Shown in pieces: positions 6,602-43,526 of a stretch of 64,000 nucleotides of DNA. The translations under genes were made by a program, and so were the position numbers. The stretch comes from a phage. The notes beneath the pieces are model-generated. The model was not told the DNA's origin, searched no databases, and worked only from the letters and a program-made list of their open reading frames with translations. Each line of letters begins with the position of its first letter. Position 1 is the stretch's first letter. The stretch lies in the sequence record PZ452606.1; one strand, 5' to 3'.

Positions 6602-8189
<1,588 letters not shown>

Positions 8190-8197
8190 AATAAAAT

Positions 8198-8218
8198 GGG
8201 CCTTGCGGCCCACTCCTT
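8198..8218 (-). promoter_or_regulatory. hairpin splitting the denA Shine-Dalgarno from its start codon
   Basis: GGAG, then GGGCC-GCAA-GGCCC hairpin, then 8 nt, then ATG. Confidence 0.4.
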
Positions 8219-9395
8219 AAAAATATTTTTTAAAACTCATCATAACTTTATCATCAACATCATTATCAATCTGTGCTACAAGGTAAGATGACAGTTCTAC
8301 TTCTTGCGGTGCAGATTGAACATTATCAGAATTAAGATATTCACGAATCCAAGGATATGGATGTTTAACCGGAGCATCGGTAATTGGGCATGGAAGACCG
8401 CACTGTTTCATACGAGATACAGTTAAGTAATCAATAAAGCTCCACATGCTATTTGTATTTAATCCAGGAACATCGCCATCTTTAAATAAATGAACTGCCC
8501 AATCTTTTTCTTGGCGGTTAACTTCCATGAAAATATCAACTGCTTCTTGTTCACACTCTTGAGCAATTTTAACCCATTGATCGCCATCAGTACCAGATTG
8601 AAGTTGACGAATAATATATTGTGTACCTTTAAGATGAAGCTGCTCATCACGTGCAATGAACTTCATAATCTTGGCATTACCTTCCATGATTTCCATGTTC
8701 TTATGGAAGTTAAAGGTACATGCGAAAGATACATAAAAACGAATAGCTTCCAATGCGTTGATTACATGCAAACAGAGGTAAAGAGATTTCATTAGCTCAC
8801 GCTTCCAATATGTCTCATGCTCAATAGCATCTTCAATAACGTCTTCGTCTGCATTAATTTCTTTTTGGTATTCGATATCAGCTTTAGCGTTTTCCCAATA
8901 ACGAGTTTTAATCAGAACATCATCATAATAACGTCCAATGGATTCAGCACGTTTCATAATAGCTTCATCTAATACAATTTCATCAAATACCTTCGATGGA
9001 TCAGTATAAAGATTTCGCATGATATGAGTATATGAACGACTGTGAATAGTTTCACTAAAAGTCCATGTAGCAACCCATGTATCAAGGCTTGGGTCTGAAA
9101 TTAATGACATAAGTACAGCAGATGGCGCGCGACCCTGAATGCTATCTAAAAGTGATTGATACTTCAAGTTGTTAGTAAAAATATTTTGCTGATACTGAGG
9201 AAGCTTATTAAACTGTGCAGCATCCATCATCAAGTTTACTTCTTCAGGACGCCAGAAAAATGATAAAGATTTCTCAATAAGTTCTTCAAATACTCTATGC
9301 CGTTGAATATCATATCGAGCTAAACCCAATCCAGAACCAAAAAACATCGGCTCAGTCAAAATATTAACAGGGGATGTATTAAAAACTGTACTCAT
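8217..9395 (-). CDS. nrdB: ribonucleotide reductase small subunit
   Basis: 392 aa continuous ORF, no intron. Confidence 0.9.
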   Translation of the reverse strand: MSTVFNTSPVNILTEPMFFGSGLGLARYDIQRHRVFEELIEKSLSFFWRPEEVNLMMDAAQFNKLPQYQQNIFTNNLKYQSLLDSIQGRAPSAVLMSLISDPSLDTWVATWTFSETIHSRSYTHIMRNLYTDPSKVFDEIVLDEAIMKRAESIGRYYDDVLIKTRYWENAKADIEYQKEINADEDVIEDAIEHETYWKRELMKSLYLCLHVINALEAIRFYVSFACTFNFHKNMEIMEGNAKIMKFIARDEQLHLKGTQYIIRQLQSGTDGDQWVKIAQECEQEAVDIFMEVNRQEKDWAVHLFKDGDVPGLNTNSMWSFIDYLTVSRMKQCGLPCPITDAPVKHPYPWIREYLNSDNVQSAPQEVELSSYLVAQIDNDVDDKVMMSFKKYF

Positions 9396-10033
9396 TTAGA
9401 ATCCTTAAATTTACATTTATCATAATGCCATCTTAGAGCATTGCCTTTATTAACCTTCTTGCCACAATGCGGACAAGGCGGATACTCTATACTTTGCTTA
9501 GTTCTCAAAGAAATCAAATCACGAGTTTCTTTAGTATGAGGAACATCTCTTGTCGGAGAGATTGTACCATACATCGGATTAAGCACGCCGACTTTAGCAG
9601 CAGCTATATTCTTTTTAGCTTCTTCGGTTTTAGGTTTTCTCATGCGAGCTAAATGCTCTTTGGTAAATTTCCTTCCTTTAAGAGCTCTACTTATCTTTTC
9701 CCTGGTTTCTATAGAAACTTCACGTCCTATAGCAGCTTCAGATAAACGTCGTCTACCTAATTCGTATAGTTGAGAAGAAATTTTATATGAGCGATTTTTA
9801 CCAGTCAAGCACATTAAACCAAAAGCTTTCTTTAATCCTGGGGTGTCATATATTTTGCATAAAAGCCAATGAGCTATAAAATGCTCTCTACCTGTTAATT
9901 CAACTAAATTTTCTTTATCATCAGAACCTCCCATACATCTAGGGATTATATGATGAGTCTCTTTATATTCAGATAAAGGTTCCCGAGCCTGAGCTCGGGA
10001 AATTAGGTCATTATAGATTTTTTGATAATTCAT
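9392..10033 (-). CDS. HNH homing endonuclease (mobE-like)
   Basis: HNH motif HHIIPRCMGGSDDKENLVELTGREHFIAH, NUMOD-like repeats, C-terminal CxxC zinc finger; wedged between nrdA and nrdB. Confidence 0.75.
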   Translation of the reverse strand: MNYQKIYNDLISRAQAREPLSEYKETHHIIPRCMGGSDDKENLVELTGREHFIAHWLLCKIYDTPGLKKAFGLMCLTGKNRSYKISSQLYELGRRRLSEAAIGREVSIETREKISRALKGRKFTKEHLARMRKPKTEEAKKNIAAAKVGVLNPMYGTISPTRDVPHTKETRDLISLRTKQSIEYPPCPHCGKKVNKGNALRWHYDKCKFKDSK

Positions 10034-24755: not shown

Positions 24756-24760
24756 ATTGA

Positions 24761-24786
24761 GGGAGCCTTCGGGTTCCCTTTTTCTT
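24761..24786 (+). terminator. rho-independent terminator after gene 35
   Basis: GGGAGCC-TTCG-GGTTCCC hairpin then T-tract. Confidence 0.6.
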
Positions 24787-28400: not shown

Positions 28401-29169
28401 AACAACCGGCGAAGTGATGATGAATAACGGCATAGCTGTTCGCAGCGCTGCTTTATTCTATAATAGCATAAACGTCAAAGATAATGGTTCTATTAACTTT
28501 GATAAGTCCGGCGCTAACCCGAGAAACATGCGTATATTCCATGCAGGTGATGGCACTCGTGGTAATCGCATTGAAATTGCTGATGAAACAAACTATATTG
28601 CTTACTTCCAAAAATTACCTGGTGGTCAAAATCAGGTTTCATTCAATAGTGCTACACTTTCTGGATTAACACAGTGTAATCAATTTGGTGTTAACACAAC
28701 AAACGCACTTGGTGGAAACAGTATAACATTTGGTGATACTGATACTGGTATTAAGCAAAATGGCGATGGATTATTAGACATATATGCGAACAACGTGCAA
28801 GTGTTCCGTTTCCAAAATGGTGATTTGTACTCATATAAAAATATAAATGCTCCAAACGTTTATATTCGTTCTGATATTCGTTTAAAATCTAACTTCAAAC
28901 CTATCGAAAATGCACTTGATAAAGTTGAAAAACTCAATGGTGTCATTTATGATAAAGCTGAATACATCGGTGGAGAGGCAATTGAAACTGAAGCGGGTAT
29001 TGTAGCTCAAACGTTACAAGACGTTTTACCAGAAGCCGTCCGTGAAACAGAAGACAGCAAGGGTAATAAAATACTCACTGTTTCTTCTCAAGCCCAGATT
29101 GCTCTTCTGGTTGAAGCTGTGAAAACACTTTCTGCTCGTGTAAAAGAACTTGAATCTAAACTTTTGTAA
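25489..29169 (+). CDS. 37: long tail fibre distal subunit gp37 with C-terminal intramolecular chaperone domain
   Basis: 1226 aa; the last ~99 aa from SDIRLK (nt 28870) resemble the self-cleaving S74-type chaperone domain. Confidence 0.9.
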   Translation: MATLKQIQFKRSKTAGARPAASVLAEGELAINLKDRTIFTKDDSGNIIDLGIAKGGQIDGNVTIDGTLRVNGPINNFGNFSTSGTITASNIVSATVFRSTSGSFYTRAINDTANAHLWFENTNGSERGVLYSKPQSENEGVITMRVRQGTAAGAQNSEFHFISTDGGIFQARKLTALTSISTPTISVNLINHDSKSFGQYDSQSLVNYVYPGTGETNGVNYLRKVRAKSGGTIYHEICTAQTGLADEVSWWTGNIPLFKLYGIRNDGRMIIRNSLAIGTVTEGYPSSDYGNTGVMGDRYLALGDNASGLKWVRTGVIDLMANGISAATIINNGINSTKKLMVGYSRDSGSTWDFPNNNQAMFTARTDVDGNNNGDGQTHIGYSSNSKMYHYFRGTGRMSVSMGDGLLVEPGILDIKTGSNSLNLRADGTVASTQEVKLNNGLFFNSSSSNAGLKFGASSSINGTKTIQWNAGTRPGQNKSYVTMKAWGNAFEDNTNKNRETVFELGDGQGWHFYSQRVAPVAGSTVGSVEFAMAGSLLTSGSITTRSSLNADNGLSVNGQAKFGGTADALRIWNAEYGAIFRRSESNLYIIPTPKDAGESGGISNLRPLIIELNTGTVKMSHDVHLGDSGSGTGLLQVSNSLKTIKMICPVTINERNAALTLDSPSSSSANYLQGSKAGTRSWYVGLGGAGNDLSLYSQSYGHGLVISDNFVSISKPLKVGNAQLGTDGNITSGSGNFANLNTTLNRKVNSGFITYGATAGWYKFATVTMPQSTSTVFFKIVGGSGFNSGLFTQCNIAEIVLRTSNERPADLNAALYTRTIGAAFKDIAVNNVSGDTYDIYVSAGTYCNQLACEWSCTENATVSVIGINSSTQSPVDALPDTAVNGQVANVLNNLVDRGKVKRYEADSEIAINSQTGIRIRSNADKTGSVATMLRNDGGSFYILFTDKNATDGAATVNGDWNSKRPFAINLTTGEVMMNNGIAVRSAALFYNSINVKDNGSINFDKSGANPRNMRIFHAGDGTRGNRIEIADETNYIAYFQKLPGGQNQVSFNSATLSGLTQCNQFGVNTTNALGGNSITFGDTDTGIKQNGDGLLDIYANNVQVFRFQNGDLYSYKNINAPNVYIRSDIRLKSNFKPIENALDKVEKLNGVIYDKAEYIGGEAIETEAGIVAQTLQDVLPEAVRETEDSKGNKILTVSSQAQIALLVEAVKTLSARVKELESKLL

Positions 29170-29170
29170 A

Positions 29171-29188
29171 AGAGGGCTTCGGCCCTCT
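29171..29188 (+). other. UUCG-tetraloop hairpin between genes 37 and 38
   Basis: AGAGGGC-TTCG-GCCCTCT, followed by the gene 38 SD. Confidence 0.45.
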
Positions 29189-29199
29189 AAGGATTTTTA

Positions 29200-29985
29200 A
29201 TGGCAATTGTAGGTGTTCCTGGCTGGATTGGTGAATCTGCCGTGAATGAAACTGGACAACGCTGGATGGATGCTGCGATGAGAGCAGTTCGTGTTTCAGT
29301 TCCTGGTTGGATGAGTTCAATGGCTGGGCAATCTAAAGAAGTATATTATAGCATTGGTGCTAGCAATTCTTACAATAAAGACACACTAATAAATTGGATA
29401 AAAGCCCAAGGAAGTACTCCTGTTGTTATTACAATTACAGGCAATATCGTTTCTTCATCGACAGGTCAACCATGCTTAGATTTTCCTAGCTCATTAACTA
29501 ATGCATACGTGACACTTAATATCAATTCAGGCGTGCATGTTTGGGGGCGCGGCGGGAATGGCGGAAATAACTCTGCTGGCGGAGCAGGAGGAACTGCAAT
29601 AAATAACGGAATTGGAACTAGATTACGTATTAACAACAATGGTGTTATCGCAGGCGGCGGTGGCGGCGGTGGCGGCGGGTATTATTCTCCTTTTTCACAA
29701 ATGAGATTAACCTTTGGCGGTGGTGGTGGGCGTCCGTTTGGTGCTGCCGGTGGGTCTGCTAATATGGAACAGGGTGCTACTGCTGGTACTATTTCTGCGC
29801 CAGGTAAAGGGTCTGTCAACGGTATCTATAATGGCGGGAATGGTGGTGATGCCGGAGCCGCAGGAGGTAAATGTAATATTCGCGGTCAAGGATCAGAATA
29901 TAACGGCGGTGCTGCGGGTAAAGCTGTTACTGGTAATGCTCCAACTTGGACTAAAGTTGGTACAATATACGGTTCAAGAGTATAA
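29200..29985 (+). CDS. 38: tail fibre adhesin gp38 (T2-type, glycine-rich)
   Basis: 261 aa; conserved N-terminus then poly-Gly islands separating variable segments. Confidence 0.85.
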   Translation: MAIVGVPGWIGESAVNETGQRWMDAAMRAVRVSVPGWMSSMAGQSKEVYYSIGASNSYNKDTLINWIKAQGSTPVVITITGNIVSSSTGQPCLDFPSSLTNAYVTLNINSGVHVWGRGGNGGNNSAGGAGGTAINNGIGTRLRINNNGVIAGGGGGGGGGYYSPFSQMRLTFGGGGGRPFGAAGGSANMEQGATAGTISAPGKGSVNGIYNGGNGGDAGAAGGKCNIRGQGSEYNGGAAGKAVTGNAPTWTKVGTIYGSRV

Positions 29986-43214: not shown

Positions 43215-43239
43215 ATTATACTCCGGTAATCATAAAGCT
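43215..43239 (-). promoter_or_regulatory. candidate middle promoter upstream of gene 39
   Basis: AGCTTTA (MotA-box-like, one mismatch), 12 nt, TATAAT. Confidence 0.35.
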
Positions 43240-43240
43240 A

Positions 43241-43256
43241 AAGGCCCGAAGGCCTT
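43241..43256 (-). terminator. UUCG hairpin after the lipoprotein gene
   Basis: AAGGCC-TTCG-GGCCTT then T-rich. Confidence 0.45.
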
Positions 43257-43526
43257 TTATTTAAAACGAATAGTTGAATCCTTAAAGAACAGCCCAGAAC
43301 ATACTGTTCCTTCTACTTTCTGCCCAGTAGGTCCAATAGCACGAAATCCAGTATGTTGGAAATCATTTTCAGAACAACCAAACCAATTATATCCAGTGAT
43401 TTCAATATTAGTAAAACCACTTGAAGATAAAACTTTGGTTGCATTATCAGCATCAGTACATCCTGCTAAAGACACTGCTAATACTAATGCCGCGATAGAA
43501 CGATTAATATATTTCATAATTTTCAC
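43257..43526 (-). CDS. putative lipoprotein
   Basis: Signal peptide with lipobox LAGC. Confidence 0.55.
   Translation of the reverse strand: MKIMKYINRSIAALVLAVSLAGCTDADNATKVLSSSGFTNIEITGYNWFGCSENDFQHTGFRAIGPTGQKVEGTVCSGLFFKDSTIRFK

Follow-up and report, generated by a model that had tools for sequence, protein, structure and literature searches.

The junction between nrdB and denA in a T4-type phage appears to carry a ribosome-binding site whose two halves are held apart in the sequence and brought together by an RNA hairpin. We examined a 64,000-nucleotide (nt) segment of a Tequatrovirus (T4-type) genome, sequence record PZ452606.1 (hereafter the window), in which both genes lie on the minus strand, as do all junction coordinates given below, and with moderate confidence we interpret the junction as a split ("accommodated") ribosome-binding site into which a terminator-type hairpin is inserted. 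On the comparisons presented here, denA is probably a third member of the known class of split Shine-Dalgarno (SD) sites, alongside T4 genes 38 and 25, and its hairpin would double as a transcription terminator.

Read 5' to 3', the junction is 31 nt long and runs AAAAAAUAUUUU UAA GGAG U GGGCC GCAA GGCCC A UUUUAUU AUG AAA GAA. The upstream gene, nrdB (8217..9395), encodes the 392-aa small subunit of ribonucleotide reductase, an assignment based on 98.8% DNA identity to Tequatrovirus records that annotate the ribonucleotide reductase beta subunit, and it ends with the TAA at 8219-8217; across nrdB-denA, the Escherichia phage VEc74 is 98.8% identical to the window. The SD sequence AAGGAG (8213..8218, core GGAG at 8216-8213), of which the GG purine motif is kept in relatives, takes both of its A's from this stop codon. 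Directly after it comes the hairpin U-GGGCC-GCAA-GGCCC-A (8197..8212), which is identified by folding, by covariation and by a terminator annotation in NC_054926.1, and which we propose to be both a spacer-shortening element and the stem of the nrdB terminator. Its 5' arm (8212-8207), GNRA tetraloop (8206-8203) and 3' arm (8202-8197) form six base pairs, namely a core 5-bp stem of GGGCC (8211-8207) with GGCCC (8202-8198) and an additional closing pair, U8212-A8197. The U-rich stretch UUUUAUU (8190..8196) then leads to the denA ATG (8189-8187) and would serve as the U-tract of the putative terminator and also as what is left of the spacer between the SD and the AUG. The denA gene (7779..8189; phrog_1111, E = 1.8e-65) encodes endonuclease II, a GIY-YIG enzyme of 136 aa.

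An earlier reading of the DNA, made from the letters alone (the sequence-only reading), had placed GGAG at the nrdB stop, 23 nt from the denA ATG, and this count proved exact (8216-8213 to the A at 8189); it is a distance beyond direct SD use (> about 15 nt). The hairpin fills 16 of these 23 nt, and its folding leaves 9 unpaired nt if only the 5-bp stem forms or 7 nt if the U-A pair is included, in line with the spacing of about 9 nt that had been predicted. The same reading regarded GGAG as the only SD-like element in front of denA. This stands insofar as no accessible or conserved SD motif lies nearer to the AUG and the spacer UUUUAUU contains no purine run, but an AAGG is present at 8204-8201, in the loop and 3' arm and 11 nt before the AUG, where it is buried in the stem, and it is missing in relatives with a UUCG loop. 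The denA AUG lies 27 nt past the nrdB UAA with the stable hairpin between them, and so neither overlaps the stop nor lies within a few nucleotides of it, as would be usual in translational coupling.

The hairpin itself is predicted to be stable. The 16-nt element folds with -11.6 kcal/mol, and in context all bases of the stem are paired with a probability near 1.0, as expected from the sequence-only reading, to which the U-A pair is added here. The 91-nt context gave a folding z-score of -2.39, with 6 of 200 shuffles folding as well. GC-rich tetraloop hairpins of the same class occur 11 times on the same strand against 0.48 expected from dinucleotide shuffles, and this enrichment, together with the stem covariation described below, rules out a chance palindrome. 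The region of the denA AUG is predicted to be open (unpaired probability 0.55-0.8).

The evidence that carries our interpretation comes from relatives, which we collected from the IMG/VR viral-contig collection, scanned twice with DenA, and from targeted GenBank phage loci. The order stop, SD, hairpin, AUG was found in 25 distinct nrdB-denA junctions, belonging to Tequatrovirus, Gelderlandvirus (S16), Winklervirus (Vettismorki), Tegunavirus (phiR1-RT), Bragavirus (SJ_PmiM) and probably Karamvirus, the sixth genus depending on one locus that we take to be phage CC31; DenA identity within this set goes down to about 58%. All 25 junctions consist of the stop, (A)AGG(A/U/G), a GC stem with a UUCG, GCAA or similar loop, a spacer and the AUG. 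Without exception, a GG-containing purine motif, its GG nearly invariant, lies 0-3 nt 5' of the stem, and the distance from the stem to the AUG is 4-10 nt and holds no SD core motif. In an alignment of 23 sequences (A2) with six stem pairs, 94.9% of the stem cells are paired, and compensatory, two-sided changes (GC/AU/CG/UA) occur at four of the six pairs. There are 23 compensated cells against 6.6 expected, the covariation score was reached by none of 500 shuffles, and shifting the 3' partner columns by 1-3 positions made the pairing collapse. Where it was measured in relatives, the linear gap from SD to AUG is 22-27 nt and the folded gap about 6-9 nt. Locus L012 and Vettismorki have a 7-bp stem and a linear gap of 27 nt, yet their folded gap is still 9 nt, and in locus L040 the stop codon is shifted 3 nt upstream while AGGAG remains against the stem. 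Thus, the spacing tracks the fold, and it is the flanks rather than the linear distance that are held constant. Taken together, the alignments indicate that the order, the short flanks and the base-pairing are kept by selection across the sampled diverged T4-type phages. Five distant GIY-YIG loci (L041-L045; 40-42% identity) have another genomic context and were set aside as uninformative.

Two further analyses address how specific the arrangement is. We scanned the window for hairpins with a start codon 3-11 nt downstream that opens an open reading frame (ORF) of at least 50 aa, and only denA has its SD 5' of the hairpin; the ordinary order of hairpin, SD and AUG occurs at least five times (37976, 37747, 35326 and 3281 on the minus strand and 29171 on the plus strand). 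Applied to the T4 loci, the scan recovered genes 25 and 38 as positive controls. Moreover, a covariance model built from denA junctions only matched the T4 37-38 junction with 28 bits (E = 0.009). Another match of this model, at 43228-43270 in the window, is an ordinary terminator after an 89-aa ORF, with the SD of the next gene further on, and is not a second split site. A search against Rfam gave sub-threshold chance matches only, the best being L20_leader with 23 bits against a gathering score of 58.7, and thus no known RNA family. As a separate observation, GC-rich tetraloop hairpins, mostly with UUCG loops, are about 20-fold enriched on the minus strand of the window (37976-37959, 37747-37732, 35326-35311 and 3281-3254, and also 278-259, 33523-33502 and 54162-54141). 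Several of them, lacking a U-tract, are followed directly by a conventional SD, and this points to stabilisation or processing of intercistronic mRNA, not termination, as a general role.

The two known split sites resemble the denA junction to different extents. At T4 gene 38 the intervening structure cuts the SD spacing from 22 to 5 nt, at gene 25 from 27 to 11 nt, and mutations that destabilise it lower initiation (PMC3014915); the same review does not mention denA. The T4 37-38 junction reads GCA UAA GGAG AGGGGC UUCG GCCCUUCU AAAU AUG AAA, so that, as at denA, the upstream TAA shares its A's with AAGGAG, which is followed by a GC-rich tetraloop hairpin, a short A/U spacer and AUG AAA. The linear spacings are nearly the same (22 nt at gene 38 and 23 nt at denA), with folded spacings of 5 nt (PMC3014915) and 7-9 nt. 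They differ in that the effect at gene 38 is backed by mutations whereas the denA site is known from its sequence, and in that the gene 38 hairpin has no U-tract and is therefore not terminator-like, with a d-score (our own implementation of the d'Aubenton-Carafa terminator score) of -34 against +25 for denA. Gene 38 is a late gene, and denA is an early or middle gene. T4 gene 25 also has a distant SD (GAGG, 27 nt), an intervening hairpin and an intercistronic site right after the upstream stop codons. Its stem is longer and A/U-rich (CUCAAAG/CUUUGAG) and, unlike that of denA, has no U-tract, and it is supported by lacZ fusions and dimethyl sulfate probing, whereas the case for denA comes from comparing sequences. 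The gene 25 arrangement is kept in close T-even phages and replaced in distant ones (PMC3014915), a pattern that the denA junction repeats. The sequence-only reading had equated denA with these two genes, and the layout, the covariation and the folded spacing agree with it; what it did not consider is a role in termination and coupling to nrdB translation, which we weigh below. The window's own 37-38 junction (29167-29202, plus strand) has the conventional order of TAA, the hairpin AGAGGGC-UUCG-GCCCUCU, AAGGA, 6 nt and AUG, unlike the split junction of T4, and the gp38 it precedes is a T2-type adhesin (phrog_2056). Split and conventional arrangements are thus interchangeable at the 37-38 locus.

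Several observations weigh against a split site at denA. The first concerns the SD itself. Folding in context confirmed the hairpin but predicted that the SD is mostly paired: ViennaRNA pairs GGAG with the UUUU of the spacer, which lengthens the stem and adds -4.2 kcal/mol (from -12.2 to -16.4), and the unpaired probability of the SD at the predicted equilibrium is 0.01-0.29, with a mean of 0.15, compared with 0.52 predicted for gene 38 and 0.46 for gene 25. In relatives, many of which have a similar weak pairing with the U-rich spacer, the mean ranges from 0.0 to 0.7. With AAGGAG, the anti-SD of 16S rRNA is able to make six Watson-Crick pairs, and it could open the lower stem, which is rich in G-U pairs, without disrupting the GC hairpin. 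Second, an element that only terminates transcription or stabilises the mRNA would be just as likely to show a covarying hairpin stem and a short distance to the next gene. Third, the upstream motif is not strictly diagnostic of SD use, because Krischvirus MIZ4 (L047 1445-1500) and Karamvirus CkP1 (L055 78-123), in which the hairpin is followed by a conventional GAGG and the AUG, nevertheless retain a purine-rich motif before or within the 5' arm; the Citrobacter phage CkP1 also has a 2-codon N-terminal extension of DenA. Fourth, denA can be expressed by coupling alone, because three hairpin-less lineages use an AUGA overlap. In the Yersinia phage fHe-Yen9-01 (L026 1440-1505) a recombinant nrdB abuts denA as AUGA, and the same kind of overlap joins the nrdA.1 stop to the denA AUG in the Aeromonas phages Aes508 and Aeh1, in each case without a hairpin and without a clear SD. 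The sisters of fHe-Yen9-01, phiR1-RT (L061 116-158) and TG1, retain the split module. Since fHe-Yen9-01 matches these sister phages only from the denA start onward and its nrdB is of different origin, the recombination breakpoint appears to lie exactly at the junction. In the window the SD is still contiguous with the upstream stop, but the denA start lies 27 nt beyond that stop, on the far side of a stable hairpin. Finally, the T4 reference records AF158101.6 and NC_000866.4 place denA at 137517..137951 with a GTG start (T4 137949-137951) and 144 aa, which we consider further below.

Of the other explanations, the one that survives best is that the hairpin is only the terminator or 3' stabiliser of nrdB, that a low level of DenA arises by termination and reinitiation through a 27-nt slide from the UAA to the AUG, that the hairpin has no positive role in initiation, and that AAGGAG at most retains the post-termination 30S subunit. 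We consider this explanation rather unlikely, though it has substantial points in its favour. With its 6-bp stem (five GC pairs) past a stop codon and UUUUAUU directly after it, the hairpin has the layout of an intrinsic terminator, and its d-score of +24.7 compares with 24-45 for the clearest terminators of the window, such as 278-259, 33523-33502 and 24760-24779. Three deposited genomes list a terminator under their match to nrdB-denA, and NC_054926.1 puts an ARNOLD prediction on this very hairpin. Like the T4-type terminators with UUCG or GNRA tetraloops, it has a GC-rich stem within their range of 5-9 bp, a U-tract and a position just past a stop codon. A general terminator scan of the window did not list it, because a G-U extension of the stem consumed the U-tract. 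Consequently, the hairpin with its U-tract could, by its sequence features, credibly act on nrdB as a Rho-independent terminator. In most relatives the spacer is rich in U (on average 5 of 8 nt), and the stop is contiguous with the SD in most junctions, which would suit reinitiation, as would the AUGA overlaps described above.

Other observations are not accounted for by termination and reinitiation. Among 18 relatives, 12 have a negative d-score, and loci L031 and L032 carry GUAAAGCU in place of the U-tract, whereas the hairpin, the GG and the short spacer persist. The d-score is only a guide, however, because it is also negative (-25.9) for the weak mobE terminator, which has been verified experimentally. 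Unlike T4-type terminators, the denA hairpin is followed 7 nt after its stem by a start codon with no SD between, and its 5' flank is AAGGAG and not an A-tract. The GG is nearly invariant even though an A-tract would serve a terminator equally well, and the other terminator-type hairpins of the window have A-rich 5' flanks without GG, so pairing with the U-tract alone fails to explain it. In L040, described above, the SD goes with the hairpin and not with the stop codon. Since Krischvirus JSE and Acinetobacter phage Acj9 lack any hairpin 3' of nrdB, the hairpin is not simply the nrdB terminator but travels with the nrdB-denA junction. We also considered whether GGAG is conserved as a processing site, since GGAG is the motif cut by the T4 RegB endoribonuclease in the SDs of early genes (PMC9409239). 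This was ruled out as the cause of conservation by the relatives that carry GGAA, GGAC, GGAU or GGU, while RegB may still process GGAG in T4-type phages; a cut at the denA GGAG (8213-8216) would part the SD from the hairpin and the AUG.

That denA starts at the annotated GTG, so that the protein has 144 aa and the hairpin merely codes for GRKAHFI, seems to us very improbable. The codon (8211..8213), which lies 24 nt upstream of the ATG inside the 5' side of the hairpin, is in frame with no stop between, and its position 3 nt past the nrdB stop would permit reinitiation. Yet AAGGA abuts it with zero spacing, leaving it without a usable SD. Among 28 distinct junctions, an in-frame start at -24 occurs only in the T4 type (three near-identical variants), the L009 type and L039, and in most of the others an upstream in-frame start is lacking or is cut off from the ATG by an in-frame stop. 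Insertions and deletions in the stem shift the reading frame between the position of the GTG and the ATG, and the stem evolves by compensatory changes of the kind seen in RNA. At the protein level, the N-terminus M-K-x-I-A-x-E-Y-S-F is kept in 16 diverged homologues, all of which align from MK(E/D)I. The published EndoII constructs and crystal structure begin with MKEI, and the numbering of E118 assumes 136 aa. The chain in PDB 2WSH has a His tag followed by MKEIATEY..., and the window's DenA differs from it by one substitution besides the engineered E118A. We therefore favour the ATG, giving 136 aa, as the conserved denA start on this comparison, while a minor isoform starting at GTG might also be made in T4-type phages. 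The sequence-only reading had named use of another start codon as a result that would count against it; such a start is indeed annotated in the T4 records, although it is not conserved and leaves no space for an SD.

We regard as equally improbable the idea that the hairpin is a repressor, and that initiation uses the AAGG of the loop (8204-8201) or proceeds independently of an SD on the A/U-rich leader when ribosomes terminating at nrdB melt the hairpin: the AAGG has a usable spacing of 11 nt, a terminating ribosome 4 nt before the stem must unwind it, and the AUG region is predicted to be open, but only the close T4 relatives with their GCAA loop have this AAGG, the loop of most relatives being UUCG with no purine run, and the conserved GG upstream of the stem is left unexplained.

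Under the split-site interpretation that we prefer, the junction might work as follows. We found no promoter between the interior of nrdB and denA when searching for late (TATAAATA), MotA-box and early-type motifs, and denA is therefore taken to be expressed from read-through transcripts. On these the hairpin would stay folded while 16S rRNA pairs with AAGGAG and displaces the weak GGAG:UUUU lower stem; the effective distance from SD to AUG would then be 7-9 nt, which would let the 30S subunit initiate as it does at T4 genes 38 and 25. The hairpin and UUUUAUU would also end or attenuate nrdB transcripts and protect their 3' ends, so that denA, a nuclease gene assumed to be needed in small amounts only, would receive fewer transcripts than nrdB and its translation would depend on RNA folding. 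Given the footprint of a ribosome, the 4 nt between stop and stem are so few that one finishing nrdB must melt the hairpin; while at the stop, it may accordingly suppress termination and pass its 30S subunit to the adjacent SD. More tentatively, and as a possibility that we consider doubtful in its full form, the single hairpin could be at once the nrdB terminator and the denA spacer-shortener, with ribosome occupancy of the stop codon setting both read-through and the 30S handover, the whole forming a compact device, conserved in many genera of T4-type phages, that couples transcription to translation and sets the ratio of nrdB to denA expression.

The surroundings of the junction differ from those in T4. 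In the window, nrdB (8217-9395, minus strand) is an uninterrupted ORF without a group I intron and without I-TevIII, whereas nrdB of T4 is joined from two pieces. Between nrdA and nrdB lies a single ORF (9392-10033, minus strand) for a 213-aa HNH homing endonuclease, whose N-terminal part is 65% identical over 119 aa to T4 MobE and whose C-terminal 83 aa are 98% identical to T4 NrdB.1; because its two parts match these proteins, the separate mobE and nrdB.1 of T4 look like a split version of it. A 9-bp hairpin inside this ORF (10001-9980) is the counterpart of the mobE terminator mapped by Wilson & Edgell (PMC2790892).

The split-SD mechanism is already known, and denA would be a new site for it. 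We found no description of the denA translation initiation region or of mapped 3' ends at this site in the literature searched, which missed several key T4 papers, so an earlier description may exist. If our interpretation is true, denA would be a third natural split SD in T4, more widely conserved, in at least six genera, than that of gene 25, which is found mainly in close T-even phages, and a further test case for how the 30S subunit deals with a hairpin that lies between the SD and the P site. The comparison also challenges the GTG start of the T4 reference records and favours the 136-aa ATG start used in structural work; such genes will be given a wrong start or too low a score by gene finders that demand an SD no more than about 15 nt away. 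For the phage, the junction would be a case in which one element is a terminator and also part of a ribosome-binding site. The product of nrdB is presumably needed in larger amounts than that of denA, and such an element would explain the low output of a potentially harmful nuclease gene that lies directly after nrdB and has no promoter of its own.

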